Below, piece after piece: positions 29,282 to 62,555 of a stretch of DNA of 64,000 nucleotides. The notes beneath the pieces are model-generated. The model was given only the letters and a program-made list of their open reading frames with translations. It had not been told where the DNA came from and searched no databases. Each line of letters starts with the position of its first letter. Position 1 is the first letter of the stretch. Source of the stretch: a virus (Duplodnaviria; Caudoviricetes); IMG/VR virus record IMGVR_UViG_3300031993_006627, positions 32,001-96,000 of that record, one strand, 5' to 3'. Position numbers and translations under genes: made by a program.

Positions 29282-29333
29282 ATCTGGATCGGGTGATCCA
29301 ATAGTTTAACCAACCAAACAGAAAGGAGGAACT

Positions 29334-46163: not shown

Positions 46164-46889
46164 ATGCCTGATCCAACTGCCACACTCAAGCAGCTTGTCG
46201 GTGCCCAGCAGAAGTTCATCGCGAACATTCTGGACCAGGGCAAGCCGAAGCAGATCTACCGGCTGGATGACTACAACCAGATCCGGCACGCACTGTTTGA
46301 CAACGTGAAGAATGCTGTTATGCAGCGCTTTCCGCTGCGCAACGACCGATATACCCTCGGTATCGAGGAAGTCGACTACGATGATCCGGACGAGATCGAC
46401 ATCGCCAAGCAGAAGCGCTGTATCCTGGAGGGAAAGTCCTGCGACCGGCGTCTACGTGGTTCCTGGGTGCTCAGGGATGCGACGAACGACAAGGTCGTCA
46501 GCAAGACCAAGCGCATGACTATCATGCGTGTGCCTTACATGACAGAACGTGGCACTTTCATCAGGAATGGGCACGAGTACGCTTTCACAAATATCATGCG
46601 CCTGGAGCCTGGTGTCTACACCAAACGCCGCGACGACGAGATTTCCGCACAGTTCAACATCCAGAAGGGTACCGGTGCTGGGTTCAACATGTTCCTGTCA
46701 CCGGAAACCGGCGTATTCAAGATCAAGCGCGGCACCACGACCTGTCCGGCATACACTGTGTTCAAGGATCTCGGCGTGACCGACGACCAGATGCAGGAAG
46801 CCTGGGGCAAGGAGCTTTTCGAGAAGAACAAGACGGCAGGTTCAGACGAGAAGTCCCGTCAGGCGGCTGACAAGATATACAACATGTGA
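46164..46889 (+). CDS. RNA polymerase beta subunit, N-terminal fragment
   Basis: 'VPYMTERGTFIRNGHEYAFTNIMRLEPGVY' corresponds to RpoB 'IPLMT..GTFVING.E.....Q..RSPGV'. Confidence 0.85.
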   Translation: MPDPTATLKQLVGAQQKFIANILDQGKPKQIYRLDDYNQIRHALFDNVKNAVMQRFPLRNDRYTLGIEEVDYDDPDEIDIAKQKRCILEGKSCDRRLRGSWVLRDATNDKVVSKTKRMTIMRVPYMTERGTFIRNGHEYAFTNIMRLEPGVYTKRRDDEISAQFNIQKGTGAGFNMFLSPETGVFKIKRGTTTCPAYTVFKDLGVTDDQMQEAWGKELFEKNKTAGSDEKSRQAADKIYNM

Positions 46890-46897
46890 GGACCGAC

Positions 46898-47065
46898 ATG
46901 CAGGCATATGCACAGTTCAAGATCGGACAGACGCCTTCAACGCCTACGGTAAAACAGAACGCAGCACCGATCCAGACTGTACAGCCGCAACAGCCTACGC
47001 AGTCGAATCCTTCCGGTGCACCAAAGCTGGAATCTTACGCGGAATTCAAGGGACAGAACAAATGA
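46898..47065 (+). CDS. 55-aa P/Q/T-rich microprotein
   Basis: GAGGA RBS; fills the gap and overlaps the next ATG; YAQFK...YAEFK. Confidence 0.55.
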   Translation: MQAYAQFKIGQTPSTPTVKQNAAPIQTVQPQQPTQSNPSGAPKLESYAEFKGQNK

Positions 47066-48789
47066 CACTCAACGAATTGATCAAGACAGCAGCGCCGAAT
47101 AATGCGCCAGTACAGACTGCCAAGAAACCTGCCCCGGATACGCAGCCGACACAGGCGCAGAAGGTACAACCGCAGTCCGTCCAGCAGCCACAGCAGAAGA
47201 AATATACTGCCAAAGATCTACCCAAAACATCACTGGAACCGCTTTATAAACGCTATGCACAGCAGGAAAACAGTGAGAGTCTTATGGATTGGTCTCCTGC
47301 CGCGTTTGCAGGATTCGAGAGAGATGTACAGCGCCTTGGAGAGCAAAATGCGCGGCAGGCTGAGGAATCCTATTATCAGCAGGGTCTGAACGAGATCCTG
47401 CAACGCAGCCCCTGGGTTGCCCAGCAGATGGGCTCGATGCCCGGTGCCACACCGCAGGAACTCTATGACCAGGCTGTCCGTATGGAACATTACGGGGCTA
47501 CACAGCAGGGCGTACCTGGCGCCATGGCATATCAGCAACAGCAGGAAGCTGCCAGACAAGCGGAGGCCGCACGTCAGCAGCAAATGCAGGCGCAAGCTGA
47601 TGCACTGAACCGGCAGCAGAGCGCCTTCTGGAACCAGCATCATCAAGTACAAGCTGCAACTGAACGTGCCCGGAATCAGGCTATACAGAATCAGATGGCT
47701 CAGCAAATGCAGGCTTACAGCAACTGGTACAAATCTCCGGAACAGGAAATGATCCGAGCAGATGCCCAGTACAAGAACAGCCCTGAGTATGCGAATTATG
47801 ATCTCCATCAGAATATCATAGGCAACTATGAAAACATGAACAACGAGATCAACGCCATGCTGGATTACGTCTATGGGAAGTACCCTAATATGACTCCAGA
47901 GCAGCGAGCTCAAATGGATGATCTTGGTTTCCGACGCTGGGGCCAGACTTATACTGATCGCAGAAATGAATTCATAGCGAAACAGAATGCCCAGGCCCAG
48001 GAGAACTACAGACTTTCCACGGTGGCTTACAATGCCTTCCAAAAGGACGCACAGGAAGCCATGCGGAATACTGATGTGCGGAATGGTTTTGACATGGCGG
48101 CCTTTGAAGCCCAGTGGGAAAAAGAGCACGGTCTTCCCCCTGGTTCTGTTCAACGTGTTCGTCAGGAGGCGTCGGTGGCGTTTACGCCGATTCCTCTTTA
48201 TACACCGCAGACTCAGCAGGCAGTTGCACAGCGTGAATTTTCCGGTGACAATATCGCAGCGGCAGAAGCAAAGGCCAAGGCGGAGGCTCAGAAATATGAT
48301 GAAATCAACAAACCGGCTCCGAGCACCCAACAGACCGTGACTGCTCAGACAACAGGAACGCAACCGGCGGGAACTGCCGTGCCTGCCACCGGTACCCAAG
48401 TGGCCAGCACGCAAACCAGTGGTAAGCCGGTCAATACCGGAAGCGGCAGACCAGTGGAACAACTTCCAGCTGATTTAGCTGGGGAAGGAAGCAACCCGAA
48501 TCCTAACCCGAATCTGGGTGCAGGTGGATCTCCTTCTGATCTCGGCCTTATGGCCTGGGCGCAGGAACATCCGAACATGGCAGCCGGTATCGCGGCTCTG
48601 CTTACAGGTGCTCTCACGCTGGGTCTTAGTGGCGGTGGCGGCGACAAGAAGAAAGATAGCTCTCTTGGCCTGGTGCTTGCAATGCTTCTTTCCACGGGCG
48701 CTTTCTTTGGTACAAGGAGTCTTCTGACGCCGGAACAAGTTGCCCAGAATTCCAGTAAAGTCATCGACAGTACCAAATCCGGAACATGA
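47062..48789 (+). CDS. putative virion protein, Q-rich, C-terminal TMs (K-x-A)
   Basis: MTLNELIKTAA; two C-terminal hydrophobic helices. Confidence 0.65.
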   Translation: MTLNELIKTAAPNNAPVQTAKKPAPDTQPTQAQKVQPQSVQQPQQKKYTAKDLPKTSLEPLYKRYAQQENSESLMDWSPAAFAGFERDVQRLGEQNARQAEESYYQQGLNEILQRSPWVAQQMGSMPGATPQELYDQAVRMEHYGATQQGVPGAMAYQQQQEAARQAEAARQQQMQAQADALNRQQSAFWNQHHQVQAATERARNQAIQNQMAQQMQAYSNWYKSPEQEMIRADAQYKNSPEYANYDLHQNIIGNYENMNNEINAMLDYVYGKYPNMTPEQRAQMDDLGFRRWGQTYTDRRNEFIAKQNAQAQENYRLSTVAYNAFQKDAQEAMRNTDVRNGFDMAAFEAQWEKEHGLPPGSVQRVRQEASVAFTPIPLYTPQTQQAVAQREFSGDNIAAAEAKAKAEAQKYDEINKPAPSTQQTVTAQTTGTQPAGTAVPATGTQVASTQTSGKPVNTGSGRPVEQLPADLAGEGSNPNPNPNLGAGGSPSDLGLMAWAQEHPNMAAGIAALLTGALTLGLSGGGGDKKKDSSLGLVLAMLLSTGAFFGTRSLLTPEQVAQNSSKVIDSTKSGT

Positions 48790-48882
48790 CGCTGACGCTA
48801 ATGTAACGATAACCCGTAATTCATATACGAACCAAAACAGCTACCAAGTAGCAACAAATACAAACCAAAGAGGAGTCTACAA

Positions 48883-49896
48883 ATGACTTATCAAGAAGCT
48901 CTCAAGAAACGCGCTCGTCTTGCTTACACCGGTCTCCAGAAGAAGGCCGAAGGTGATGAAGCACAGAACAAAGCCTGGAACAAGAAGGTCGACGAGGAAG
49001 AAGCCGGTCGCCAGCACTATATCGCTGAGAAGAACGGTATCGTGAATCGTGCCAAGGGTGAACAGGCCGTTCGTGATATCCAGGATGAGAAAGATCGTGC
49101 TGCTGCCAGCGCGGCTTATATCGCCAACTACCAGAAAGCACTGGACAACAACCTGGCTTCCGGTCAGGCGTACTCCGACAAGCTCAAAGAGCTGGCTGCT
49201 CTGACAGCTGTCGCCCCGGCGGATTATACGGACAAGATGAATCAGGTCGTGAATCGTGCTCTCGGCGAAGAAAAGTCCCGTCAGCTTACGAAGCAGAAAG
49301 AAGACAACGCCGCTTTCAATGCGCAGAATGACGCCATGCTTGCTCAGGCTATGCGTGATCAGGGTATCGCGAATATTCAGGGTGCTCTTTCTGTCCCTGG
49401 CATCCAGCGTCAGCAGTATCTGGATTCTCTTGAGCCCCGTCGTCAGGAGATCGAGCAGCTCGCCAACAAGAACCCGCAGCTTCTCTATCCGATTCTGAAT
49501 GATCTCGTCAATCACGGCGCTTCCGCTGATGCAATCATCAACGCGCTTACTCAGGCGGATGTCGCGAAGGGCATGGAATTCGACAGTGCTCACCGCAAGG
49601 AAGTCGCTGCCCAGAAGGCTCTGGAAAATCGCAACCTCGGCATTGGCATCGGCGCCGGCGCTCTCGGCGGTCTCGGTGCTGCCGGTGCTGCCTATGGTCT
49701 CGCCGGTCTCTTCCCGTCCCTCCGCAAGAAACGTCTCCTCCGTGCCCTTATCGCTCTCGGCGTCGGCGGCGCGGCTGGTGCTGGTATCGGTATCGGGACG
49801 ACCAAGGGTCTCAACAGTGGCGCGATTCAGGGTGCCTACGGCGCTACCAAGGATTACCTCGGTAGTGTCGGCCGTGGACTCTCCGGAAAGGCCTGA
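48883..49896 (+). CDS. putative virion protein (Gly-zipper, K-x-A)
   Basis: KKRAR, QKKAE; GIGAGALGGLGAAGAAYG. Confidence 0.7.
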   Translation: MTYQEALKKRARLAYTGLQKKAEGDEAQNKAWNKKVDEEEAGRQHYIAEKNGIVNRAKGEQAVRDIQDEKDRAAASAAYIANYQKALDNNLASGQAYSDKLKELAALTAVAPADYTDKMNQVVNRALGEEKSRQLTKQKEDNAAFNAQNDAMLAQAMRDQGIANIQGALSVPGIQRQQYLDSLEPRRQEIEQLANKNPQLLYPILNDLVNHGASADAIINALTQADVAKGMEFDSAHRKEVAAQKALENRNLGIGIGAGALGGLGAAGAAYGLAGLFPSLRKKRLLRALIALGVGGAAGAGIGIGTTKGLNSGAIQGAYGATKDYLGSVGRGLSGKA

Positions 49897-49957
49897 TCCA
49901 GTCGATCAACAATAGGGGCTGGGCAACCAGCCCCGATTCTTATAAGGGAAGCGCATT

Positions 49958-50941
49958 ATGAATAGAGCGCAATTCATGTTCAAGGTCGCCACCAAGGACC
50001 GCTCCATTGGTGTGCTTCGATCTATGATCCGTATGTCCAAGCAGGCTGCCGGTGCACCGGCTGGTAATGTTCCACAGCAGGACTTCTACAGCACGATCAA
50101 GTCCATCTTTGAACCAGAAACCAAACCGGCAGGACAACCTGCAGCAACTGGAACAACTGCCCCAGCTACTACACAGGCTCCGGCTACCACGCAAGGTCAG
50201 GCGAGTCAAGGAGCTCCCGCTGGAACGCTTACCCCTGAACAACAGGCGTATCTGAAGCAATGGATGGAGCAGCAGTCGAACTACATCGGAGATCAGGCTG
50301 CAAAGGGTGCTCAGATTGATCTCGCTACAGAGCTCGGAAAAGGCGCTATAGAAGGCGCTGGTCTTGGTCTCTTTGGTGGCGGCGTTATCGGTGCGGGGCA
50401 CAGGGCGATTTCCGACTTCTGGTCCCCAAGTGGTTACTGGAATGCTCTCCGACTGAATAGAGCCCGTGTGGCGGAAATGAACCGAAGTATTGCCCCCGGA
50501 GCTCCAGCTGGTACGACATATAACTTCGAAGACATCGACACACGTATTCACAACAACGAAGCAGCAAGAAGCAGGTTGTCGAGACTCTTCAGGCCTGGTC
50601 CAGTGGTTGCTGCGGGCAAGAACCCAACGTTCAGCAGGATGACAGGCGGTCAAGTGCACGGTCTCGATGTTGCCACAAACGGAACCGGCCCAGGAAGTGT
50701 AAGCCAGTCGGCAGCCACACGCAGTCACTATCTGGATCGTATCTGGGGTGGTGCTAAGCGTGGCGGTGGCTTTGGTGCTGTCGGTGGTGCGTTCGCTGGA
50801 CCTGTTTTTGAGGTGCTTAACGGGGTCAGTGATTCCAACCGTAAGAAATACGGGCAGAAGGCGACAGAGGAAGTTTTCGGTACCCAGGATAACCCGAAGC
50901 CTATGCCCTGGTATCTCAGTGGCAGTAAACCGCAGCAGTGA
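49958..50941 (+). CDS. putative virion protein (Gly-zipper, K-x-A)
   Basis: FKVAT, SKQAA; GAGLGLFGGGVIGAG. Confidence 0.65.
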   Translation: MNRAQFMFKVATKDRSIGVLRSMIRMSKQAAGAPAGNVPQQDFYSTIKSIFEPETKPAGQPAATGTTAPATTQAPATTQGQASQGAPAGTLTPEQQAYLKQWMEQQSNYIGDQAAKGAQIDLATELGKGAIEGAGLGLFGGGVIGAGHRAISDFWSPSGYWNALRLNRARVAEMNRSIAPGAPAGTTYNFEDIDTRIHNNEAARSRLSRLFRPGPVVAAGKNPTFSRMTGGQVHGLDVATNGTGPGSVSQSAATRSHYLDRIWGGAKRGGGFGAVGGAFAGPVFEVLNGVSDSNRKKYGQKATEEVFGTQDNPKPMPWYLSGSKPQQ

Positions 50942-50944
50942 TGC

Positions 50945-50969
50945 AATTTTCCACCTGAGGTAGAAAATC
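50945..50969. repeat. 25-bp pseudo-palindromic site, copy 6 (inverted)
   Basis: AATTTTCCACC-TGA-GGTAGAAAATC. Confidence 0.8.
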
Positions 50970-50973
50970 TTTC

Positions 50974-51001
50974 AGGCCCCGTAACAGGGGCCTTTTCTTT
51001 T
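50974..51001 (+). terminator. intrinsic terminator
   Basis: AGGCCCC GTAACA GGGGCCT TTTCTTTT. Confidence 0.75.
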
Positions 51002-51048
51002 ATAGTAGAGAGTGATACGCGCCCGGTTACATAAGAGGAGACCATAAC

Positions 51049-52623
51049 ATGAATATAGATCATATCAGACAAAGCATGCTGAAGCAAGCCGCTGACAAAG
51101 ATCATTCCAAATTATATAGGGATTCAGGCGATATACTTGAAGGCCCAACTGCATATATTCGTGGTGTGGGAGGAGCTGATGACAAATACAATGAAGAAGG
51201 CTGGGACAACTTTCAGAAGCAGACGGGTAACTGGCAGAGAATAGGTGCTACTCCTTACTCTTTTAGTCCTGATATAAATAAAAAGACCCCGGTTATCGAT
51301 TGGAAGCTGAGAACGCCAAAAGCAGGCGGCGGCACAACTGAATATAAAACAAGGACATTCCCAAATCAATCTATTAGTGCCAGAGTTGGCGCCTGGATGA
51401 TGAGTCCGTCTTTTCAATATCAACAACAGGCAGCAGGAGCTAATACAGCAGGATCAAATTCTGCACAAGGTGCGCAACAAAAACCAGGTCCTCTAAAAAT
51501 ATACACTGGCAGACCGGGTGAGCAACTGACGGAAGATATCATAAATGCCGCGAATGCTGGAAGAACACAATTTACTTTGCAGCCATTCACTAATGAGCAG
51601 CTAATGAGGATAATGACTCTTGATCCCAAGAATCGAAACTATATGAATGAGCTGTTGAGACATTACAGCCATATCCCATTAGAATCTTGGCATAAGGGAA
51701 ATCTGCAACTTGGCTCGCCAGAAGAGATCGAAGCATGGAAAAAGGATAAACCTCCTTTGGATAATAAAAATAACAACCAGAGTGGAACTTATTATTCAAC
51801 TCCTGGAACCATATCTTTGGATTCCACTGGTTTGTTCAACAGATATCTCGATGGATGGGGCAGTCAGGTTTATGATGGCAGATGGACTAATGCTTTATCC
51901 CAGGAAGCATATGCAGGGAATCTCATGACAAGCTCTCCTGTATTGGCAGGTCTGATAGGAGATACATATGGTCATGAGCTAGGGCACAGATATATGATGG
52001 GACAAACTAAAACCACCAAGGCAAACGGACCGATAAAACTAGAATATTCAAGGAAAGCCTTTAATCCTAAAAAGCCCGCGTCGTCTGACAATATTCCAGC
52101 TTTGATGAGCTCTGTGGACTTCAGGCCCCTTCCATTCGATGCACAGCAGTATGAGTGGCTGAAGAACAGAGCTATTCAAAGTTATGCTGTAAATGAGAAT
52201 GAAATGAATCAGGCGCTCACTAGCTTTAATCGTGGTCGATGGGCATTGAAGCAGGACATGATAAACAATCCGGATAATCCAAACTATAGGTATCTGGCGG
52301 AGAATTACCCTGGATTGATGGACAAGTTCAAGGCTCTGCCGGATTTCATTCCAGCCGGTAACGAAGGTATGAAACAGCTGGATAACGTGATGCAGCTTTT
52401 CATACAGAACCCTCAGTTGAAAGTTCTCATGCCGGAACAAGCGCGACTCGTCGGTTATTACCAGAATCTAAAGGCCGCTGTGGATAATGCGGATACTCCA
52501 CAGGAGAAGCAGTTTTTCCAGAACCTTATGAATCGTATGGTTTACAGCAAAGCGTTCCTGGCAAATAACCAGCAGAGCAAGCCTCATATCTCGTATGCTG
52601 ATGCCTATCGAGCGTATGCATAA
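51049..52623 (+). CDS. putative virion zincin-like metallopeptidase (K-x-A leader)
   Basis: LKQAAD; 'YGHELGH' (HExxH) with a downstream 'Y..N.NE'; AT-richer than neighbours. Confidence 0.5.
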   Translation: MNIDHIRQSMLKQAADKDHSKLYRDSGDILEGPTAYIRGVGGADDKYNEEGWDNFQKQTGNWQRIGATPYSFSPDINKKTPVIDWKLRTPKAGGGTTEYKTRTFPNQSISARVGAWMMSPSFQYQQQAAGANTAGSNSAQGAQQKPGPLKIYTGRPGEQLTEDIINAANAGRTQFTLQPFTNEQLMRIMTLDPKNRNYMNELLRHYSHIPLESWHKGNLQLGSPEEIEAWKKDKPPLDNKNNNQSGTYYSTPGTISLDSTGLFNRYLDGWGSQVYDGRWTNALSQEAYAGNLMTSSPVLAGLIGDTYGHELGHRYMMGQTKTTKANGPIKLEYSRKAFNPKKPASSDNIPALMSSVDFRPLPFDAQQYEWLKNRAIQSYAVNENEMNQALTSFNRGRWALKQDMINNPDNPNYRYLAENYPGLMDKFKALPDFIPAGNEGMKQLDNVMQLFIQNPQLKVLMPEQARLVGYYQNLKAAVDNADTPQEKQFFQNLMNRMVYSKAFLANNQQSKPHISYADAYRAYA

Positions 52624-52685
52624 CACCGTGTCCCTTATTCTATAGTAGAACGAGACGCGAGGGCTACATAAGAGGAGATACGAAC

Positions 52686-55600
52686 ATGCCAGAAGAACCT
52701 GTTACACCGATACAAGCAGCGAAAACCACGATGTCCACGATCCGGCTGGTGCCGGACAAGCCGAAAAAGACTGCTGCAGATTGGGTAAGGGATATGCGCA
52801 TGTCTCCTGAGGTCAATAAAACGACCGTAGGAGTCGATACAGCGTCTGTTACCGGTGATCTCCTCCTGGCGACTTCCAATAAGCTCCTCGGTATTTCCCG
52901 GCGCAAACTGGAGCCGGATCCGAAGGATTCCCTGGAGTTCCAGCGTTTTTATGGGCCAGCGGAGTACTTCGCAGAACACGTCATGCGCGACGGTAATAAG
53001 CTCGGCCGCAATATCCTTTGGAAAGCAACGAACCAGGGCAATCTGGATTTTATGCCGGTTGCCGCGCTGGACAAGCATATTTCCGATGTCTACTACGACA
53101 GCAAGCTCGCCCAGATGATCGACGGTTCCTCTCCGCTGGAAACAGTGGATGCTTCCTATAAGACCACCCGCATCGGTGAAGGCGGTGTCGGCGACCTGGA
53201 TTCTGCACCGGAAGAGATGCGCACGGTGCAGCCGTCGTTCCTCGGTTTTATAGATTCAATAAGGTCGCCTGAGAGTTTCCGAGTCGGCCTTGATGTCTAT
53301 ATGACTAAGAATGTTATGAAGGGTTCCGACGGAAAGCTCTACCAGAAGTTCATCAATGCTCACACTGGCAAGGAAGAACTGGTGGATTCCGAGACTATTG
53401 CGAAATCCATAGTAACAACGCCGGAAATCATGAAGACAAAGACTAAATCAGTCTTTGCGGTTGGCGGCCCGACTGGTGTTCGCATCGTTCCGCGCAAGGA
53501 TGTGGATTACTATCTACCCAGAGCGGATGAGGCCTATAGCCTTTCCTCGAATATGGTCACGATGCCATCGGCTGTCATTGGCATGCGTCTGCTGATGGGC
53601 TGCCTGCACCCGGAGACCAATGTGTTTGTGGCCAATGAGCGCAACATGGTGTCTATGGTGAAAGCCAGATACCTGACCGGGAAAGATCAGCGGATACCCG
53701 GTATGAACAAGGAGTACAATTCCCTCTGCTACGGCCTGCGGAATACGATCACCAAGTGCGTTCCCCAGGCAAAGTGGTTCAAAAAGATCGTCTTGCGCTC
53801 CGGTCGCGTGATTATCACCAGTTATGACCATAAATGGCCGGTGCTGGTTAAGGATGAGATGACTCTGGTCCAGGCAAGAGATCTTCGGGCCGGCGACACG
53901 GTGTTCCGTACCACTTTCAAAGACGTGCCGAATCGCCGGACGTTCCTGAACAAACACATCATCACCAGGGACGTTGCGTTTGTCCTCGGTCTGATCTGCC
54001 GGTCGGTCTATACGAATCATCCGGGATCCGTGGGCTTTTGCTACCCGATTGCAACTGATTTGCGTGTAAAAGAGGCAATTCAATACGTCTATAGAGATCT
54101 CACTCCCAAGCAGTTCCATATCACGAAGAAAGACGGTTTCCGGTACATGACAATCAAATGCCAGGGGCTTTATGATTTCGTGAAGCAAAACATTGGTTTC
54201 AAACCAGAGGAACGCCGGATCCCGTCCGAAATCCTCAGCGGCTACGCAGATGTCGCTGCAGAGTTCATCAACGGTTATACCTCGGATGAGACGAAGGTCG
54301 GCATCGACTGCAACGAGGATATCTGGGTGCTGTTTATCCCGAATATGGATTTCCGGGATCAGCTGGCGTTCCTGTTTGCCCGTATGGGTACTGATACGCT
54401 GTACCGGGATGCCTCCCAGAATGGTGAACTGCAGATCGCTCTCAAGATCAATGACCAACCCAGAGTTTTCCATGATATGTACCAAGACACTGTGAAATAT
54501 GTCTGGGAAGGCCCGAAGTGTCCGATCATGGTGGACATCGACATCAATGACAACATGTATGCAGTTGCCAATGGCATCGTGACGCACAACTCGAAGTATC
54601 CTCTGCAGGCTGTCTCTCTGGAGCAACGCGAAGCTCCTCTGGTCCGTACACTGGACGAAGCCTCCGGAAAAGATATGGCGCAGATCGCCGGTAAGTTCCT
54701 CGGTGCCAGGTTTGCCCCGAAGGGTGGTATCGTCAGTGCAGTCCGCAAGGATAGAATCGATGTCATCTGGGATGATGGTTCGAAGGGTGCAGTTCCCCTC
54801 TATGTAAACTTCCCGATGAATGCCAAGGGCTACATCAATAATACGCCGGTGGTGAAGGCCGGCCAGTCGTTCAGTAAGGGTGACTGTCTCGCGGCCTCCA
54901 ATTACACAGACAAGACAGGCACTGCAGCACTCGGCATCAATCTCCGCACCGGTTGGATTTCCTGGAAGGGCGGTACCTACGAGGATGCCGTTGTGATCTC
55001 GGAAGAAGCGGCCAAGAAGCTCACCAGCACGACGATGTACAACACATCAGTTGATCTGGATAAGACTGTTTCCCTGGGCAAGCACAATTACATCACCTGG
55101 AAGCCGGCGGAGTACACCAAAGAACAGATGCAGCAGCTGGACGACAACGGAATTGTCAAGCCAGGCACGGTACTTCACAAGGGCGACCCGATGATCCTCG
55201 CCATCCGTACTAGCGAACCTTCACCTGGTACGATGGGAAAGCGTATCTTGACCGATCTTTCGGAGACCTGGGACCACGATCATGCTGGTGTTGTGACTGA
55301 TGTGGTCAAGACCCGCAAGGGTGTCAAGGTTTATACCACCGTGACTGCGCCGGCGGAAGTCGGGGACAAGATCGCCGGCCTGCATGGCAACAAGGGCACG
55401 ATTGCCCAGATCCTGCCGGCCGACCAGATGCCACAGACACAGAACGGTACACCGCTGGATATTTGCTTCAGCCCGCTGGGTATCACCAGCCGTAACAATA
55501 CGGCGCAGCTCTATGAAGCACTGCTGGCAAAGGTTGCCAAGAAGACCGGCAAGACACAGGTTGTCCCGGCGTTCTACGACGGGGATCTCTACGAGTACGT

Positions 55601-58600
55601 CCAGAGCAAGCTGAAAGAAGCTCGTGTACACGCAGATGAAGACTTGGTGGATCCGGAGACAGGCCGCACGATTCCGAATATCCTGACCGGCTACATCTAT
55701 ACACACAAGCTGAAACATCTGGCTGAATCCAAGATGTCGGCCCGTGGCACCGGCGAATACGCTGCGGATGAGACACCGGCTGGTTCTGGCGAGACAAAGG
55801 CGAAGCGTTTTGGGTCGCTCGAAATTGGCGCGATGGTGGGCCATTCTGCTTTCGAGAACCTGCGCGATGCAAAGCTGCTCAGGGGACAGTCAAATGCCGA
55901 CTTCTGGCGGTCTATCAGAACCGGCAACATCCCGACGATGCCGGGCGAGCCTCTCGTCCACAAGAAGTTTTTCGCCCATCTGATTGGCTCAGGCGTGAAT
56001 GTCCGGAAGAGTCAGCAAGGCGTGAGCGCGTTTGCTCTCTCCAGTGACGATGTGGAAGAACTTACCGGCCCCCGCGAGTTGAAGACCCGTGATACCTACG
56101 AAACACGTAATTTTCGACCCATCGACGGCGGTCTGTTCGGCCAGGACATCTTCGGCATCAATGGAGACAAGTGGGCATATATCAAACTCGACGAACCGGT
56201 TCCGAATCCTGTAATGGAAGAGCCTCTCGCCCGTTTGCTCCGAATGCCGGACAAGACATTCATTGGTGTTGCGACAGGCAAGACGGAGTACAACGGAATC
56301 CGTGGACCGCTGCAGCTGAAGGATGCGTTGGCAAACATCAATCTGGAAACCGAAGCCAAGAATGCTCTCCAGGAACTCAAGAATGCTCCAGTGTCCAAGA
56401 AGGATGCCGCGCTGAAGCGCTATGTCGCCATCGAACGCATGCGCCGGCTCGGTGTCAGCCCGGATAAGTATATGCTGGACAAGATCCCGGTACTGCCTCC
56501 GCAATATCGTCCGATCAGCACGCACAACGGTCTCACGATGGTTGCTGACAGCAATTATCTGTATGCCCAGCTGCTGGATGCAAGGGATGATGTCCGGGAA
56601 GCACGGGATCTACCAGAAGAATATCAGCAGCAGGCACGCGAGACGCTGTACAAAAACTGGAAAGAGCTGACCGGTCTGTACGAACCGGAGAACAAGGCGT
56701 TCAAAGCAAAACATATCCAGGGACTTCTGAAGTGGGCATTGGGTGACAGCCCGAAGTTCTCGGCCGCGCAGCGGAAGATCATCGGTATCGGTGTCGATAC
56801 TGTGGGCCGTGGTGTCATTACCCCGAACCCACGTATCAAGCTGAACCAGGTTGGTCTTCCGGAAGATATGGCGTTCGGTATCTTCTCACCACTGGTGGAA
56901 CGTGCTCTTGTGCAGCGCGGCTACACCCCGGTGGACGCCATCAAGCAGGTGCACGATAAAACGAACCAGGCTCGTGAGATTCTACTGAAGGTCATGGAAA
57001 CACACCCCGTGCTTATGAACCGTGCACCTACGCTGCACAAGCTGTCGATCATGGCGTTTAATCCGGTACTTGTCAGCGGTCATGCTCTGCAGATCAATCC
57101 GAGTATCGTTGTTCCATTCGGTGCTGACTTCGACGGCAACTGTGTTGATTACGACAGCGAGATTTTCTTGAAAATATCAAAGTCTCAACACAATATTTCC
57201 ACTGCTGATTTCGTTAATTGTGTATCAAACCACAAAAATAGAAAGGATACACAAGACATGAAAACAACAGCTGAATCCCTCGTAACCTACTGGAGCGACG
57301 CAGAGAATGACTATCTGGTGATGAAGATCGGGGATCTTCCCCGTCTCGGAAACCCCATGAAGGACAAGAACGGCGCCGATTGCTATCAGGTTCCTGAAGG
57401 TCTCGAAGTCCTTACATGCAATCCGTCTACTGGAACGGCTGAATGGCAGGCAATCAATATGCTGACAGTGGAAGAAGACTGTGATACTGTCAAGATGAAA
57501 TTGGGCGCGAGGGATGTGATTCTGTCTACAAACGAGTCCGTTGCCGTCTTCGACCATGGGACCGGGTTGCTGACTAAAGTTACCCCAGAGACCGCGTATG
57601 CCGAGAAAGCAATGATTCCTGTGTTCAAGCAGAATCCTCTTCCATTCGGGACATATGCAGAACGGGATCTTGGCTGGCTTTTCGGTGCTTTTATCTCGGA
57701 CGGCTGGATGACTGATCGTACTATTGGTTATTGCAAGCTGGAGAAGGCGAAGAGGGATGAGTTCGTATCTATCCTGCGCCGCTACCACGATAACTTCACG
57801 GTGTACCAATACGATGAGGATGGCAAAGCAAACAAGTGCAAACTCGGAAAGTCGGCTAAGATTCACATAAACAGTAAAACAGCTGTTGATTGGCTCAGCC
57901 AGTGGAAGTTTGTGGACGAGGAAGCCAAAGCAAAGAACCCAGATAAACGTACTGCGTTGTTCAAGCACGTTCCGGAACATTTGATTACTTATGGCAGTGA
58001 AGAGTTCCTTTGGGGGCTGTTCTGCGGTCTGATCGACGGGGATGGTAGTCTGGTTAAGAATATGTCCACGGGCAAACCTCGTTTTACCTGCAGATTTTCT
58101 ACCTCAAGTGTAAAATTGAAAGATGACATCTGTCAGCTCTGTTACAGGCTCGGTCTGCGCTACTCTGTGACCGAGATTCCTCCGCGCAACTTCTCGAATA
58201 CAGCGTATGTTGTATTTCCTTCTACGACAGATCTTTTCAGCAAGTTGGACAAGATTCAGCTGATTGGGGAAAGAGAAAAAGCCGTTTTGGAAGAGTGGAG
58301 ACAAAGTGAACCAAGTTTGGACAGGAACGACATTGTTCCTATAACAGAGTTCGAATGGGATTGCATAAAGTCCTATCCGGAAATCATGTCCGACAAAGGT
58401 TTGTACAGCGCAGCCAGTAAGTCCAGAAAGATAGGAAGACGTGCTTGTCGCGAAGTCCTGTATCGTCATCTGGATATATTGAAATGCGCTGCACCATCGT
58501 TACTGCGCAGAGTTCTTAATACAGACACAATATGGATGACCATCGACAGCTTGGATCCGACCGGTAAGCGTCAGGTGTTTGATCTTGAGGTACAGGACAC

Positions 58601-58910
58601 GAAGGTGTTCGCTGTTAACAACGGCATCATCATCTGGGACACGGTCAATATCCATGCTCCAGTCAGTGACAACGCTCGCGAGGAAGCCCGTCGTCGCATG
58701 TTCCCGGAGCGCAACCTGATAGCCATGAAGAATCGGCAGATCGCTTATAAGCCGGAAAAGGAATACACGCAAGGGCTTTATACCGCGAGTCGCATTAACG
58801 ACAAGTCCACAGTACGCCCCATCTTATTTAAGGATCTGGCTGAAGCTCGTGCGGCCTATCGTCAAGGTCTTATCAACATTGACGACCCCATTGACATCCA
58901 GACAATATAA
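52686..58910 (+). CDS. RNA polymerase beta(C-part)-beta'(N-part) fusion with two inteins
   Basis: beta: SPES..VGL, RLLMG, YEDAVVISE, GDKIAGLHGNKG, KLKH...K.SARG, RFG..E. beta': GLF...IFG, IPVLPP.YRP, GRGVI, NRAPTLH, ADFDG. Confidence 0.92.
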   Translation: MPEEPVTPIQAAKTTMSTIRLVPDKPKKTAADWVRDMRMSPEVNKTTVGVDTASVTGDLLLATSNKLLGISRRKLEPDPKDSLEFQRFYGPAEYFAEHVMRDGNKLGRNILWKATNQGNLDFMPVAALDKHISDVYYDSKLAQMIDGSSPLETVDASYKTTRIGEGGVGDLDSAPEEMRTVQPSFLGFIDSIRSPESFRVGLDVYMTKNVMKGSDGKLYQKFINAHTGKEELVDSETIAKSIVTTPEIMKTKTKSVFAVGGPTGVRIVPRKDVDYYLPRADEAYSLSSNMVTMPSAVIGMRLLMGCLHPETNVFVANERNMVSMVKARYLTGKDQRIPGMNKEYNSLCYGLRNTITKCVPQAKWFKKIVLRSGRVIITSYDHKWPVLVKDEMTLVQARDLRAGDTVFRTTFKDVPNRRTFLNKHIITRDVAFVLGLICRSVYTNHPGSVGFCYPIATDLRVKEAIQYVYRDLTPKQFHITKKDGFRYMTIKCQGLYDFVKQNIGFKPEERRIPSEILSGYADVAAEFINGYTSDETKVGIDCNEDIWVLFIPNMDFRDQLAFLFARMGTDTLYRDASQNGELQIALKINDQPRVFHDMYQDTVKYVWEGPKCPIMVDIDINDNMYAVANGIVTHNSKYPLQAVSLEQREAPLVRTLDEASGKDMAQIAGKFLGARFAPKGGIVSAVRKDRIDVIWDDGSKGAVPLYVNFPMNAKGYINNTPVVKAGQSFSKGDCLAASNYTDKTGTAALGINLRTGWISWKGGTYEDAVVISEEAAKKLTSTTMYNTSVDLDKTVSLGKHNYITWKPAEYTKEQMQQLDDNGIVKPGTVLHKGDPMILAIRTSEPSPGTMGKRILTDLSETWDHDHAGVVTDVVKTRKGVKVYTTVTAPAEVGDKIAGLHGNKGTIAQILPADQMPQTQNGTPLDICFSPLGITSRNNTAQLYEALLAKVAKKTGKTQVVPAFYDGDLYEYVQSKLKEARVHADEDLVDPETGRTIPNILTGYIYTHKLKHLAESKMSARGTGEYAADETPAGSGETKAKRFGSLEIGAMVGHSAFENLRDAKLLRGQSNADFWRSIRTGNIPTMPGEPLVHKKFFAHLIGSGVNVRKSQQGVSAFALSSDDVEELTGPRELKTRDTYETRNFRPIDGGLFGQDIFGINGDKWAYIKLDEPVPNPVMEEPLARLLRMPDKTFIGVATGKTEYNGIRGPLQLKDALANINLETEAKNALQELKNAPVSKKDAALKRYVAIERMRRLGVSPDKYMLDKIPVLPPQYRPISTHNGLTMVADSNYLYAQLLDARDDVREARDLPEEYQQQARETLYKNWKELTGLYEPENKAFKAKHIQGLLKWALGDSPKFSAAQRKIIGIGVDTVGRGVITPNPRIKLNQVGLPEDMAFGIFSPLVERALVQRGYTPVDAIKQVHDKTNQAREILLKVMETHPVLMNRAPTLHKLSIMAFNPVLVSGHALQINPSIVVPFGADFDGNCVDYDSEIFLKISKSQHNISTADFVNCVSNHKNRKDTQDMKTTAESLVTYWSDAENDYLVMKIGDLPRLGNPMKDKNGADCYQVPEGLEVLTCNPSTGTAEWQAINMLTVEEDCDTVKMKLGARDVILSTNESVAVFDHGTGLLTKVTPETAYAEKAMIPVFKQNPLPFGTYAERDLGWLFGAFISDGWMTDRTIGYCKLEKAKRDEFVSILRRYHDNFTVYQYDEDGKANKCKLGKSAKIHINSKTAVDWLSQWKFVDEEAKAKNPDKRTALFKHVPEHLITYGSEEFLWGLFCGLIDGDGSLVKNMSTGKPRFTCRFSTSSVKLKDDICQLCYRLGLRYSVTEIPPRNFSNTAYVVFPSTTDLFSKLDKIQLIGEREKAVLEEWRQSEPSLDRNDIVPITEFEWDCIKSYPEIMSDKGLYSAASKSRKIGRRACREVLYRHLDILKCAAPSLLRRVLNTDTIWMTIDSLDPTGKRQVFDLEVQDTKVFAVNNGIIIWDTVNIHAPVSDNAREEARRRMFPERNLIAMKNRQIAYKPEKEYTQGLYTASRINDKSTVRPILFKDLAEARAAYRQGLINIDDPIDIQTI
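53601..54590 (+). mobile_element. intein 1 (330 aa) in RNAP beta, degenerate LAGLIDADG
   Basis: RLLMG|CLHPET...TSYDHKW...YAVANGIVTHN|SKYPLQAVSL; restores an RALMG.NM..QAVPL-like motif. Confidence 0.88.
57141..58640 (+). mobile_element. intein 2 (500 aa) with LAGLIDADG endonuclease at the RNAP catalytic loop, atypical WD C-terminus
   Basis: ADFDGN|CVDYDS...LFGAFISDG...GLIDGDG...VFDLEV....FAVNNGIIIWD|TVNIHAP. Confidence 0.8.
58093..58117. repeat. 25-bp pseudo-palindromic site, copy 7 (inside intein 2)
   Basis: GATTTTCTACC-TCA-AGTGTAAAATT; 23/25 identical to the reverse complement of copy 6. Confidence 0.7.
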
Positions 58911-58948
58911 CGTAAAGCAAACAACCAGATTCAAATATAGGAGTCAAC

Positions 58949-59926
58949 ATGAACTACTATCAAAGACAGCCGATGTGGCCGCTCAATAAACGCGCAGTTG
59001 CGATCCTCACACCCGAAGCGATGCAGGCAGCTATGCAGCCGCCCCCACAGGACCCCTCGATGATGGGTGGTGCTCCTATGGATCCTTCCATGACCGGCGG
59101 TCAACCTCCGATGGACCCCGCGATGGCCGGTGGCGCTCCAATGCCTCCTCCGCAGGGTGCTCCGATGGATCCCTCTATGATGGGCGGTCAGCCCCCGATG
59201 CCTCCGCAAGGTGCGCCGGCCGGTGGTCTTCCTCCTGAAGCATTGCAGGACCAGATGTTCCTGCAGTTCCTTGCCGAGGCTTTCGGCATCATGCTTGATC
59301 CTCGTTCCGGCCAGTTCTTCGATCAGAACGGTCAGCCGGTTCCTCCCGAACTTCTGGCTCAGGCTTTCCAAGCCTATATGCAGGCGATGCAGCAACTTCA
59401 GATGCAGGGAGGCGGTGCCCCGATGCCTCCGCAGGGTGCTCCGATGGATCCGGCCGCCATGGGTGGTGCGCCGATGCCGCCTCCTGGCGAGATGCCTCCG
59501 ATGGATCCCGGCATGGCCGGTGGTCAGCCCCCGATGGATCCTGCAATGGCCGGCGGCGATCCTGGTATGATGGCTCCTCCGCCGGAAGGTGGCGAGCAGC
59601 CAATGGATCCCATGATGGCGGATTTCGCCAGCATGATCGTCAGCGCCATGGAAGATACCGTCGTCACTCCTCTGAAAGAAGAACTGTCGAACCTCATGAA
59701 GCAGTTCAACGATCTGAAGGAAATGATGAAGACCATGCGGGACGACATGGGCACCATCCGTACTGATGTTGATGCCCAGGAATCCAGAGCGGATGAATCT
59801 TCCATGCTTCGTTCCCAGCTTGCTGAGGAACTCGAACCGACCGTTGAACCAGAGCCGGAAGCTCCGCAGGAAAAACAGGCAGCTCTCCGTCCACTGAACA
59901 TTCTTGACATTCTTGGGAGCAAGTAA
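58949..59926 (+). CDS. Pro/Met/Gly-rich repeat protein with coiled coil (K-x-A at both ends)
   Basis: Repeated PMDPxMxGG(A/Q)P units; NKRAV and EKQAA. Confidence 0.75.
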   Translation: MNYYQRQPMWPLNKRAVAILTPEAMQAAMQPPPQDPSMMGGAPMDPSMTGGQPPMDPAMAGGAPMPPPQGAPMDPSMMGGQPPMPPQGAPAGGLPPEALQDQMFLQFLAEAFGIMLDPRSGQFFDQNGQPVPPELLAQAFQAYMQAMQQLQMQGGGAPMPPQGAPMDPAAMGGAPMPPPGEMPPMDPGMAGGQPPMDPAMAGGDPGMMAPPPEGGEQPMDPMMADFASMIVSAMEDTVVTPLKEELSNLMKQFNDLKEMMKTMRDDMGTIRTDVDAQESRADESSMLRSQLAEELEPTVEPEPEAPQEKQAALRPLNILDILGSK

Positions 59927-59927
59927 C

Positions 59928-60698
59928 ATGACATACACCGAGTCCTACATCAAGAAGACGGCAGTAGAAGAAATGCCGTCCGATTACCAGCTTATTGGCC
60001 AGAAACTGAAGGAAGGTAATTCCGCAGTTTCCAGCGCTATGTCCACGCCTGTTGCAGCGGAAGTCGGCTGGGGTCTTATTGGCGCAGGGCTCGGTGCAAC
60101 TGGTGCTTATTTCCTGTCCAAGAAGCTCAGGCGGGACGCGACAAGGCGTCAGCGGGCTCTTGATATCGTGATCGGAGCCATTACCGGTCTTGCCGGCAGT
60201 CAGCTTATTCTCAGCGGCGGTGCTGATGAGAGCGGTCTTTCTACGAGAGGCCGCATGCGTGCTGATGCTTACCTGGAATCCATCAACAAGGGCGACAGGG
60301 ATCACAATAAGAAATACCCAGTCACTGAGCCGTTTGATCTGAACAAGGGAACCATTGGCGGTGCTGCCGGTGGTGCTTTCACAGGCGGTACGATTGGAGC
60401 CATGTTCGGGAATCTTGATACAGTTATGGCAAACAGAGCTAGTAAGAAACAGATGGCACTTGCCACAGCGCAGGCGGCTTCTGCGAAAATGGCCCCAGAT
60501 AAAGCGGCGGATTACATCAGCCGGTACATGAATCAGGGTCGCGGCCACAATGCTGTTGAAAGAGCTCGCCAGATGGGCAAGGGATTCAATATCGGCGTCG
60601 GAGGCATCATCGGCGGTGCCGGTGGATTTGGTCTTGGTGTTCTTGGCAACATGTACGCCAGGAACAAGGAAATGCAGGAATACGGTGGTGGATTCTAA
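59928..60698 (+). CDS. putative virion protein (Gly-zipper, K-x-A)
   Basis: KKTAVE; several GxxxG-rich helices. Confidence 0.65.
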   Translation: MTYTESYIKKTAVEEMPSDYQLIGQKLKEGNSAVSSAMSTPVAAEVGWGLIGAGLGATGAYFLSKKLRRDATRRQRALDIVIGAITGLAGSQLILSGGADESGLSTRGRMRADAYLESINKGDRDHNKKYPVTEPFDLNKGTIGGAAGGAFTGGTIGAMFGNLDTVMANRASKKQMALATAQAASAKMAPDKAADYISRYMNQGRGHNAVERARQMGKGFNIGVGGIIGGAGGFGLGVLGNMYARNKEMQEYGGGF

Positions 60699-60707
60699 GG
60701 AGTGCAT

Positions 60708-62555
60708 ATGAGAACCACTCTGGGCAGAGAACTCATACGGCAGAAGCTGCCGGACAAATTCAAATCCTATGCGGATCAGGTGCTGGATAAAAAGAAGCTC
60801 ACGGAGCTGATGACAAACCTGGCTCAGTATGATCCGGACGCTTACGTCGACATCCTGCAGGACTTGAATAATCTCAGTCAGACCGTCGTGTCCCTCTATG
60901 GCAGGAACACGGCTTTACCATTTGAGGACATCAAGGTTTCCAAAGGGATCAAGAGCCTGAACGCCCAGCTTCGCGCTGTCGTGGATAATGTTCTGAACGA
61001 CGACCGGCTGACTTCCGAGCAGAAGGAAAAGAAGATCACCGATCTCTGCTACAAATATACCAAGAAGGTAGAGGATGCCGTTTTCGCGGACAATGACCGC
61101 CGGCGCACTGCCTTTGCTTCCCAGATCAATTCCGGTTCCCGTGGCAATAAGACCCAGCTGATGCAGATGCAGTTCGGCAACATGGGTATGAAAGACGCCC
61201 TGAACCGTGATATGCCTTATATGATGATCGACCCGTATGCTCTGGGTGCATCCCCGATGGGATATTGGGTCAGCGCATCCTCCGGCCGAAAAGGTTACTA
61301 CGACGTCCAGGCGGCAACCGGTCAGTCCGGTTATCTTGGCAAACGCGTGACAGCGGCCACCCATGATACCGTGATCTCTGAAGATGACTGCGGTACAACT
61401 GACACTGGTATCCCATATCCTGCGAACGATAGCAAGAACGTGGGTGCTGTGCTTCTTCGCCCCTGGCATAGTTATCCGGCTGGCACAGTCGTGACGGATA
61501 AGATGGTAGGCGAAGCCGATGAGGACGAGGAGATGATCCTGCGCAGCCCGATTACCTGCAAAAGCAAGACGGGTGTCTGTGCCAAGTGCAGCGGCCTCGG
61601 TGAGAATGGTAAGTTCCCTGGAATCGGCGAGTATGTTCCAATGAATGCTGCTCGTTCCTTCGTGGAAGTCATCACCCAGGCTGGGGTTGGAAGCAAACAT
61701 CGCGGGGGTGTTGGCGGACGCAAGGTCGAGGATCCGGAAGGCGAAGATCAGCCTACTGGTTTCCGAGCAGTGGAACGTATGTTCACGACGCCGAAGAATT
61801 TCCCCGGTGGCGCAGTGCTTGCTCCTGTGGACGGCATCGTGACAAACATCGCCAAGGCCGCCCAGGGTGGCAATTATATCACGGTTGGCAGCAAAACCGT
61901 GTATGCTTCTCCGGCTCGTACCGTGAAGGTCAAGGTCGGTGACAAGCTGACTGCCGGCGACATCCTGACGAATGGTGTCCCGAACCCTGCCGAGATCGTC
62001 TCGTACAAGGGTCTCGGAGAAGGTCGCCGGTATTTCACCAACAAGCTGAACCAGGTTCTCAATGACCAGGGCTGGGGAACTGACAGGCGCAACATCGAGT
62101 CCTTCTCCAGAGCGTTCTTGAACAAGGTCGAGATCACTGACCCGGACGGGTTTGGAAACTATCTCCCTGGAGATATCGTGGACTACAGCGGTATTGCCGC
62201 AGAGTGGGAGCCCCGCAAGGATTCCGTGACGACCAAGGCCGACAAGGCCATGAACATGTATCTTGAAAAACCAGTATTGTACTACAGCGTGGGAACACGG
62301 ATTACGCCCGAAGTGGCAAGCACGCTGAAGAAGTACAAATTCGACGACGTTGTCGTATCAGACAAGGAGCCTCCTTTCTCGGCCAAGTTCATGCGGCCGG
62401 CCGAAGCGCTGCAGCACAGCAAGTACTGGCTGCCTCGTTTCGCCGGCGAACGTCTGCGCGACAGCTTGTTCGATGCGGCACAGCAGGGAATCACTGATCC
62501 CTATGACTCACCAAGTTATGTAGACAAAATAGTGGCACAGCCATTCAAACCATAA
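60708..62555 (+). CDS. RNA polymerase beta' subunit, C-terminal fragment
   Basis: SGSRG; bridge helix GRKG..D....T..SGYL.KR; DCGT; RSPITC.....C..C.G; trigger loop AARS..E..TQ.....H.GG. Confidence 0.9.
   Translation: MRTTLGRELIRQKLPDKFKSYADQVLDKKKLTELMTNLAQYDPDAYVDILQDLNNLSQTVVSLYGRNTALPFEDIKVSKGIKSLNAQLRAVVDNVLNDDRLTSEQKEKKITDLCYKYTKKVEDAVFADNDRRRTAFASQINSGSRGNKTQLMQMQFGNMGMKDALNRDMPYMMIDPYALGASPMGYWVSASSGRKGYYDVQAATGQSGYLGKRVTAATHDTVISEDDCGTTDTGIPYPANDSKNVGAVLLRPWHSYPAGTVVTDKMVGEADEDEEMILRSPITCKSKTGVCAKCSGLGENGKFPGIGEYVPMNAARSFVEVITQAGVGSKHRGGVGGRKVEDPEGEDQPTGFRAVERMFTTPKNFPGGAVLAPVDGIVTNIAKAAQGGNYITVGSKTVYASPARTVKVKVGDKLTAGDILTNGVPNPAEIVSYKGLGEGRRYFTNKLNQVLNDQGWGTDRRNIESFSRAFLNKVEITDPDGFGNYLPGDIVDYSGIAAEWEPRKDSVTTKADKAMNMYLEKPVLYYSVGTRITPEVASTLKKYKFDDVVVSDKEPPFSAKFMRPAEALQHSKYWLPRFAGERLRDSLFDAAQQGITDPYDSPSYVDKIVAQPFKP

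Follow-up and report, generated by a model that had tools for sequence, protein, structure and literature searches.

A bacterial-type RNA polymerase core redivided among three genes in an uncultured tailed phage

RESULTS AND DISCUSSION

Gene layout of the RNA polymerase locus

The stretch of DNA analysed here, called the window throughout, is a 64000-nucleotide section (bases 32001–96000) of the IMG/VR virus record IMGVR_UViG_3300031993_006627, which is 164,346 bp long with an estimated completeness of 93%, and our subject is the RNA polymerase (RNAP) that it encodes. An initial annotation of the window had proposed an RNAP divided into three genes, one for the N-terminal part of beta (beta-N), one for the C-terminal part of beta fused to the N-terminal part of beta' (beta'-N), and one for the C-terminal part of beta' (beta'-C), and this division was borne out by the open reading frames (ORFs), by Pfam and phmmer, and by alignment to relatives that include Salmonella phage Arash and Vibrio phage D69. 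All three ORFs have the same orientation and occupy 46164–46889 (241 residues), 52686–58910 (2074 residues; the large subunit) and 60702/60708–62555 (617/615 residues), and the long ORFs near this region are all on the plus strand. Both double-psi barrels are on one chain, as had also been claimed, because the 2074-residue ORF carries Rpb2_6 as well as Rpb1_2; likewise the bridge-helix/trigger-loop part is a separate gene, with Rpb1_5 found in the 617-residue ORF. The features of the three genes are as follows, with the evidence for each in brackets; G001 and G002 are close relatives, and L089 is a relative in which beta-N is fused to the rest.

46164..46889, plus strand: beta-N subunit gene, 241 residues, protrusion and first half of the lobe (phmmer; alignments with Arash gp206 and L089)
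52686..53600, plus strand: large subunit residues 1–305, comprising a 38-residue N-terminal segment, the second half of the lobe, the fork and the equivalent of the rifampicin region (alignments)
53601..54590, plus strand: intein 1, 330 residues, large subunit residues 306–635 (Intein_splicing domain; limits from the sequence and the intein-less Arash and D69 proteins)
54591..56030, plus strand: C-terminal half of beta, with double-psi barrel, flap region and C-terminal clamp part (Rpb2_6, phmmer)
56031..57140, plus strand: N-part of beta', with clamp helices, lid/rudder region and double-psi barrel, ending in GADFDGN (phmmer, Rpb1_1, Rpb1_2)
57141..58640, plus strand: intein 2, 500 residues, large subunit residues 1486–1985, with LAGLIDADG endonuclease (LAGLIDADG_3, Intein_splicing; comparison with G001 and G002)
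58641..58910, plus strand: C-terminal 89 residues of the large subunit, equivalent to about residues 465–560 of E. coli beta', and stop codon (alignment to the C-termini of Arash gp206 and D69 0261)
60702..62555, plus strand: beta'-C subunit gene, 617 residues, with bridge helix, trigger loop, second zinc site and sandwich-barrel hybrid motif (SBHM) barrel (Rpb1_5, phmmer)

The large subunit joins beta to beta'

The Pfam match for Rpb2_6 (PF00562) covers residues 713–1026 of the 2074-residue ORF with an E-value of 2.7e-57 and that for Rpb1_2 (PF00623) residues 1422–1485 with an E-value of 6e-20, and Rpb1_1 was also matched. From the translation and alignment with intein-less relatives we then set the domain limits, according to which residues 57–203 correspond to E. 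coli beta 422–572 and residues 636 to approx. 1115 are the remainder of beta, its end falling at about residues 1110–1118. In phmmer searches this beta half matches the beta subunits of 8i23, 7l7b and 6wvj as far as the beta C-terminus (E 1e-43 to 1e-51). Beta' is joined to it virtually without a linker and extends to GADFDGN at residue 1485; this beta'-N part corresponds to beta' 171–453 of 7l7b_D and 254–541 of the Mycobacterium tuberculosis protein (E ~1e-38, phmmer) and is also matched by the cyanobacterial gamma subunit 8h3v_E. The C-terminal 89 residues, which follow intein 2, are 87–89% identical to those of G001 and G002.

No cysteine was found in the translation of the large subunit from the end of beta to the clamp helices, and therefore the N-terminal C4 zinc ribbon of beta' is absent, in agreement with the deletion of a zinc-binding domain that had been described. 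The ribbon is likewise gone in Arash and D69, where this segment is also short.

The remainder of beta' is encoded by the beta'-C gene, which may start at a GTG at 60702 (617 residues) or at an ATG at 60708 (615 residues), the latter with a better-placed AAGGAG. The bridge helix and trigger loop are found here in the match to Rpb1_5 (PF04998; E 3.5e-16), and by phmmer the protein corresponds to beta' 579–1066 of 7l7b_D (E 1e-38), its start lying near residue 575 of E. coli beta'. It is 27% identical to Arash gp216 over the full length and 87% identical to its counterparts in G001 and G002.

The beta-N subunit and the lobe

The 241-residue beta-N protein has no Pfam match. Of the 42 chains that a phmmer search of the PDB listed at E ≤ 10, 39 are bacterial beta, matched at residues ~50–240 with a best E-value of 8e-6. 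The protein matches the same PHROG as the large ORF, and it aligns to the N-terminus of Arash gp206 (residues 29–213). Comparison with L089 by BLASTP placed both sides of the split on one continuous chain: residues 16–225 of beta-N align to L089 residues 3–210 with 41% identity, and residues 39–305 of the large ORF are collinear with L089 residues 247–513, neither block having notable internal gaps and only a 36-residue linker lying between them.

To this we added an AlphaFold2 model of the first 520 residues of L089, built from a 37-row alignment, with a mean predicted local distance difference test score (pLDDT) of 80 and a predicted template modelling score (pTM) of 0.76. The model superposes on beta over ~470 residues with a Z-score of ~22 (Thermus 16–570, M. 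tuberculosis 51–617 and E. coli 25–691), the structural match for protrusion and lobe thus coming from the model of a relative that is 41–45% identical to the window proteins, and its 36-residue linker is of low confidence (pLDDT 54–60). The initial annotation had taken most of the beta lobe to be missing; this has to be corrected, as beta-N and residues 1–305 of the large ORF are collinear with L089, the model of the relative matches beta, and protrusion and lobe are both present. Relative to E. coli, only the big lineage-specific insertion in the lobe is absent, and minimal beta subunits are likewise without it. The description of the enzyme as streamlined consequently stands in so far as no alpha was found (see below) and the beta' zinc ribbon and the E. 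coli lobe insertion are absent, and falls as regards the protrusion and lobe. Taken together, the collinearity with L089 and the model of the relative predict that the split runs through a linker on the surface of the lobe, and on this modelled structure the split site is a surface linker inside the lobe. In the split-beta experiments of the Severinov era, E. coli beta reportedly tolerates splitting in the lobe region that contains the beta cut of the window.

The orthologues of beta-N in G001 and G002 are 83–86% identical to it, with ratios of non-synonymous to synonymous substitution rates (dN/dS) of 0.04–0.07, as compared with 0.05 for the large subunit, 0.08 for beta'-C and 0.22 for the portal protein, all of these ratios being rough because dS is near saturation. 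Judged from these substitutions, the beta-N gene continues to be strongly constrained.

Two inteins interrupt the large subunit

In the 2074-residue ORF, Pfam recognised both an intein splicing domain and one of the LAGLIDADG type. Intein 1, which is inserted in the conserved LMG/S segment of beta (a slash marks a junction), has canonical ends, namely Cys1, a terminal His-Asn and Ser at +1; all four class 1 features are present and the intein is shared with G001 and G002. Intein 2 is located at the third residue of the Mg-binding triad, with junctions N/C ... W-D/T. In G001 and G002, which are without it, the segment reads GADFDGD-TVNIHAP, whereas the window reads GADFDGN / CVDYD...IIIWD / TVNIHAP. 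Compared with class 1 inteins it has Cys1 and Thr+1, but its last residue is Asp, its penultimate residue is Trp, and block B has N-E-S rather than T-x-x-H. All three aspartates of the triad bind the catalytic Mg2+. The barrel itself is present in the window protein (the PF00623 match given above) but its motif reads GADFDGN before intein 2.

This unusual junction is not peculiar to the window. Asn at -1 together with a terminal Asp was found in all 89 of the diverse database clusters that hold both junctions, and a terminal Asp in 133 of 136; among the IMG/VR loci, the residue is Asn in four of four with the intein and Asp in 57 of 57 without it, the latter mostly with Ala at +1. On this comparative evidence the junction pattern of intein 2 is neither an error nor decay, the reciprocal exchange of Asn and Asp in 89 of 89 clusters arguing for a selected, working arrangement. 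Our literature search returned no relevant paper on an intein in NADFDGD, which is not proof of absence. A different insertion was seen in P0132, P0136, P0142, P0144 and P0152, where it lies one residue downstream (DFDGD-S/C...) and the full Asp triad is kept; the loop thus has intein sites at adjacent positions.

Relatives and the origin of the split

In tblastn searches of phage genomes the best matches to the RNAP were Salmonella phage Arash and Vibrio phages D69, D181 and D148 (E ~1e-100, 30% identity), followed well behind by bacterial rpoB/rpoC contaminating some phage records and, farther off, by weak and partial matches (E 1e-18 to 1e-21) to phage-annotated beta or beta' genes, among them those of Yersinia phage YerA41 and Rhizobium RHph phages. 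At the DNA level the region has no megablast match among phage genomes, and the best PHROG families for the RNAP are two unnamed ones of ~1200 residues, which outrank those named RNA polymerase beta subunit. Arash gp206 (1525 residues) comprises beta-N, the rest of beta and beta'-N, and gp216 (606 residues) is beta'-C; D69 has the same layout. The window thus shares with the Arash type the fusion of beta to beta'-N and a beta' cut after the barrel, but does not have beta-N in the same polypeptide.

Intein 2 with its flanks was searched against 1.8 billion representative proteins, giving 673 matches. Among the best 150 of these, ~45 contain whole beta plus beta'-N, ~10 are fully fused and include beta'-C, ~11 start exactly at the split point of the window and four are plain beta'. 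A scan of IMG/VR found at least 280 related loci, from which 80 were kept, mostly contigs of 145–226 kb. Among these 80, a separate upstream beta-N gene occurs only in L018–L023 (which include G001 and G002), as it does in the window, whereas in ~70 beta-N is fused in frame and three are fully fused. A FastTree phylogeny built on the beta-C/beta'-N core groups all seven split genomes together (support 100), their clade lying within the fused forms. From these sequence comparisons we conclude that the fusion and the beta' cut are ancestral to the family, and the detachment of beta-N later and limited to the clade.

Further variety was noticed among L025, L029, L097, P0026, P0038, P0067, P0081, P0085 and P0086, of which some are a whole beta plus beta' in a single chain of 2500–3000 residues and others carry three or more inteins, with proteins of up to 3143 residues.

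Partners of the core enzyme

The initial annotation had noted that neither an alpha nor a sigma gene lies in the window, and this holds. Alpha was not found in the whole 164-kb genome with PF01000 or PF01193 (controls 14/14), a result compatible with a very divergent analogue or with the use of host alpha. The genome also holds no second two-barrel RNAP, as PF00562 and PF00623 have one match each, and a search for a T7-like polymerase (PF00940) gave no match, its control being uninformative. A genome-wide search for a promoter-specificity factor found two sigma70-family genes, both outside the window. One is at 29220–30206 of the genome on the minus strand and encodes 328 residues with regions 2 and 3 (Pfam); the other, at 122018–122824, encodes 268 residues with region 3 (Pfam) and a C-terminal helix–turn–helix. 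There is no Pfam match to Sigma70_r4 in the genome, and Sigma70_r2 was not found in five distant relatives, so that the 328-residue protein may be limited to the clade.

A profile search relates the 268-residue protein to sigma factors over regions 2 to 4 (E 3e-11), and the protein's fold consists of three helical domains for which the best Foldseek matches are all sigma factors. Homologues are present in five of five distant genomes of the family, four with E-values of 1e-26 to 1e-34 and one weak (1.5e-5, 19% identity), and 105 database homologues are of equal size. It is the orthologue of the virion-associated Arash Gp10, and it is the best candidate for a promoter-specificity subunit. Besides two sigma-like genes, the genome shares with Arash the portal, the terminase and a few structural genes. 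In IMG/VR the record is labelled a provirus; its gene content (a virion-type RNAP and its own sigma factors) resembles that of a lytic phage such as Arash.

Genes lying between the RNAP subunits

Three further features separate the subunit genes.

47062..52623, plus strand: variable island of four genes (47062–48789, 48883–49896, 49958–50941 and 51049–52623)
58949..59926, plus strand: gene for a Pro/Met/Gly-rich protein of 325 residues with PPMDP-type repeats (phmmer link to ORFs of relatives)
59904..60698, plus strand: second inter-subunit gene, clade-specific, likely start 59928 (MTYTESYIKKTA...), with homologues only in G001 and G002 at ~39% identity

Five genes had been counted in the first gap and two in the second; the second figure is right, and the first gap holds four ORFs. 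The products of these four, of 575, 337, 327 and 524 residues, are of low complexity and have Gly-zipper or transmembrane-like C-termini, and none has a Pfam or PHROG match. The description of the interleaved genes as virion genes accordingly finds homology silent, its sole support being an N-terminal leader that they share. In the seven split genomes the gap after beta-N measures 1.0, 1.6, 2.3, 2.5, 4.8, 5.8 (the window) and >10 kb, and its genes are non-homologous between close relatives except for patches of 25–40 residues, one of which is at the N-terminus.

The leader consists of a hydrophobic residue followed by K-x-A-A/G, often preceded by M-x-T-Y-x-E-F. The proteome contains 15 instances of its strict form [KR][TQ]AA, where shuffling predicts 3.9±2.2, and in three of the four gap proteins this form stands at positions 8, 28 and 12. 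Of 187 proteins, 14 have the relaxed form within their first 40 residues, as compared with 4/179, 1/139 and 6/111 in later 40-residue segments. Most plus-strand genes from 38537 to 62567 bear a variant of it, and so do the unrelated gap genes of L009, L010, L018, L020 and L022. In these traits the gap genes are like those of T4 internal proteins, i.e. non-homologous, rapidly replaced head-module genes with a short common N-terminal leader, for which a capsid targeting sequence is the concept (PMC9026906). The leader here is different from that of T4 in its motif and is known from sequence alone; in its pattern it looks like a signal for capsid targeting or a protease site. By this analogy with T4 the gap genes read as candidate capsid-targeted internal or ejected proteins. 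In the head module (window 38537–64825) the form hydrophobic-K-x-A-A/G/E stands on most of the genes, as it does on the non-homologous gap genes of relatives.

The three proteins of 47062–50941 are Gln/Ala-rich with coiled-coil-like regions and glycine-zipper or transmembrane-like ends, a composition which suggests membrane-inserting ejected proteins. The 524-residue product of 51049–52623 has a HELGH zincin-type motif as well as the leader motif; it matches no family, and its zincin/metalloprotease leads in the ESM Atlas are all sub-threshold. A homing endonuclease was considered as the cause of the split and rejected, HNH, GIY-YIG and LAGLIDADG being absent by Pfam from all gap ORFs of the window; in the smallest gaps of relatives (1.0–1.6 kb) we saw leader-bearing ORFs and, by eye, no endonuclease motif.

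Comparison with known polymerases

Split phage RNAPs (phiKZ, AR9), the cyanobacterial split of beta' and the mReC phages are known, and Arash-type sequences are public with beta/beta' annotations; we found no paper describing the fusion of beta to beta'-N, the family or the three-piece form in our literature library, which is incomplete. The window enzyme is most like those of Arash and D69, with full-length homology at 27–31% identity, the same fusion, the same beta' cut and the same absence of the zinc ribbon, and its genes adjoin the portal in the structural module, as they do in Arash, with which sigma-like genes are shared as well. In contrast, the Arash and D69 proteins have 1525–1527 residues including beta-N, no inteins and the triad AADYDGD, whereas the window has a separate beta-N 5.8 kb upstream and two inteins in the large subunit. 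In Arash virions, according to the part of the mass spectrometry report cited here, Gp206 is the most-detected protein (3516 spectra), with 1210 spectra for Gp216 and 467 for the sigma protein Gp10; the same part of that paper labels gp206 and gp216 simply beta and beta', with no fusion mentioned there (PMC10585845).

The phiKZ/AR9-type enzymes are also phage two-barrel RNAPs without alpha in which beta' is cut just after the barrel, but they come as two sets of four to five separate polypeptides, one of them virion-packaged, with no beta-beta' fusion (PMC7598289). They also have no sigma homologue, whereas the window genome has one RNAP set, a fused beta-beta'-N and sigma70-family genes, and does not belong to this type; its RNAP sequence is far closer to bacterial RNAPs than to jumbo-phage subunits. 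The same cut after the catalytic barrel separates RpoC1 from RpoC2 in cyanobacteria and plastids (PMC7598289), except that in cyanobacteria gamma is free and beta is intact, whereas here the gamma-like part is fused to beta. The initial claim that the split points differ from the cellular beta/beta' boundary stands in so far as the subunit boundaries are non-cellular; not all of the cuts are new, that in beta' being at the cyanobacterial/phiKZ-type site. Natural whole-length rpoB-rpoC fusions in Helicobacter and Wolbachia demonstrate that beta-beta' works as one chain, these enzymes keeping alpha2 and omega, and in a laboratory split of E. coli beta in dispensable region I a break in the lobe region is tolerated, again with alpha2 and omega kept. 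The mReC phages resemble the present one as uncultured tailed phages with bacterial-like, deeply branching beta/beta'. Their capsid- or terminase-carrying contigs mostly have the Gp23-type capsid PF07068 and terminase PF03237, and their beta and beta' are treated as two subunits, with no mention of a fusion (Weinheimer & Aylward 2020; PMC7481178). Membership of this group was ruled out, given that PF07068 and PF03237 have no match in the genome and that beta and beta' are fused.

Proposed role of the enzyme and alternative explanations

We consider it likely that these genes encode the phage's own bacterial-type RNAP core, cut down to beta and beta' and repartitioned, and that this polymerase is probably a late product which enters the head and, once injected, transcribes early genes with a sigma70-family protein. 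In the form typical of the family full-length beta is joined at its C-terminus to the N-half of beta', with the second half separate, and the covalent link between the two would do the assembly job of the alpha dimer. In the clade of the window the first ~225 residues of beta became detached at the poorly conserved lobe linker to give a third subunit gene, and fast-turnover genes with a common N-terminal leader then settled in the gap so opened. The large subunit would have to shed both inteins by protein splicing before working, and the conserved phage sigma70-family protein would supply promoter specificity; late synthesis and packaging are proposed from homology to Arash and from the gene position shared with it.

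Several points weigh against this proposal. Virion packaging is argued from a relative that is only 27–31% identical, and the sigma proteins might act on host RNAP rather than on the phage enzyme. The gap genes are without detectable homologues of known function, and the KKTAAD of the large subunit (residues 28–32) may be ancestral sequence and not an acquired signal, because the segment is homologous to the linker of fused relatives (SKVAAD in L089). The phylogeny was made with FastTree only and has some long branches, and a single origin of the split is therefore not proven. Finally, the spliced product is predicted to carry DFDGN, not DFDGD, so that activity is not assured unless the Asn is tolerated or converted, and this lowers our confidence that the enzyme as read is active.

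A real enzyme that is not a virion protein, made after infection for middle or late genes and leaving the early ones to host RNAP with a phage sigma, is in our view rather unlikely. It would fit a genome in which one RNAP set is accompanied by two sigma genes, redirection of host RNAP by phage sigma factors is common (PMC7824862), and the proteomics are those of Arash only, this phage being known from its genes alone. Set against it are the position of the RNAP genes, which share one strand within the head module and are flanked by the portal and other structural homologues, and the cited part of the Arash report, in which the orthologues are among the most abundant virion proteins and the sigma orthologue Gp10 is itself in virions (PMC10585845). 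Somewhat less probable again is that atypical intein 2 leaves the window copy catalytically dead or crippled, as a defective variant or with another role: the junction DFDGN/C...WD/T, NES instead of TxxH in block B and the DFDGD of close relatives without the intein all speak for it, but Asn(-1), the last Asp and Thr(+1) recur in 89 of 89 clusters with both junctions and in four of four intein-bearing IMG/VR loci, and all ORFs are intact and strongly constrained.

The number of subunits would be two if beta-N and the large ORF were joined after translation by a split intein, and the 38 residues that precede the resumed homology in the large ORF are indeed about the size of a C-terminal split-intein fragment. 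However, beta-N is collinear up to residue 225 of 241, leaving 16 unaligned residues, far too few for an N-intein fragment, while the 38-residue segment ends in ...DMRM/S without His-Asn, is homologous to the linker of fused relatives and contains no Pfam intein domain; with no intein signature on either side we rejected trans-splicing as very improbable. Nor can the split or fusion plausibly be an artefact of assembly or gene calling, even though the genome is a metagenome-derived contig, when the same three-gene layout is found in six other independently assembled IMG/VR contigs and the fusion recurs in close relatives, in two isolate genomes (Arash and D69), at other IMG/VR loci and in tens of protein clusters; the independent assemblies refute this explanation, to which we give practically no weight.

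A bolder version of the proposed injected, sigma-dependent core, which we put forward as doubtful, would be a minimal alpha-less, sigma70-dependent and capsid-delivered RNAP in which the lobe linker is both the fission point and a hotspot for effector genes and an intein gates activity. The covalent beta-beta' link would here replace the alpha platform, leader-tagged injected effectors would accumulate at the linker, and an unusual splicing or maturation step would restore or bypass the third catalytic Asp in intein-bearing alleles. To our knowledge, cellular RNAPs all need the alpha dimer for the assembly of beta and beta'. A natural family of at least 280 loci appears to replace alpha with a covalent beta-beta' link while keeping a bacterial-like sequence and a sigma70-family partner, and its tolerance of fully fused, two-piece and three-piece forms makes it a natural experiment on the chain breaks and links that a two-barrel polymerase can bear, and recommends it as a compact subject for structural and synthetic-biology studies. 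The fission confined to the clade of the window illustrates the birth of a subunit boundary, through a disordered surface linker and subsequent invasion by cargo genes, and virion delivery with a sigma factor, if true, would make this a kind of virion RNAP distinct from those of N4, phiKZ and crAss-like phages.

Other features of the locus

The Pro/Met/Gly-rich product of 58949–59926 has no Pfam or PHROG match. By phmmer it is related to the first gap ORF of L019, L021, L023, L078, L083, L089 and L092, and its gene directly follows that of the large subunit in many members of the family; the protein might serve the polymerase as an accessory factor or as a partner in packaging. In the main fused clade a conserved gene of ~80 residues (MLVKTQH...VEDD.GNP) lies immediately upstream of beta'-C, for instance at L030:14390-14638, with equivalents in L031, L033, L035, L040, L044, L045, L047 and L051. 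It is absent from the clade of the window, and its product could be a small subunit.

In addition, two non-coding stretches of the window, at 50975–51048 ahead of the gene at 51049 and at 52624–52685 ahead of the large RNAP gene, contain leaders of ~50 nucleotides that are near-duplicates (TATAGTAGA ... ACATAAGAGGAGA), the first of them preceded by a GC hairpin and a T-run, and similar TTATAAG/TATATAAG boxes are found ahead of 49958 and of the portal gene.

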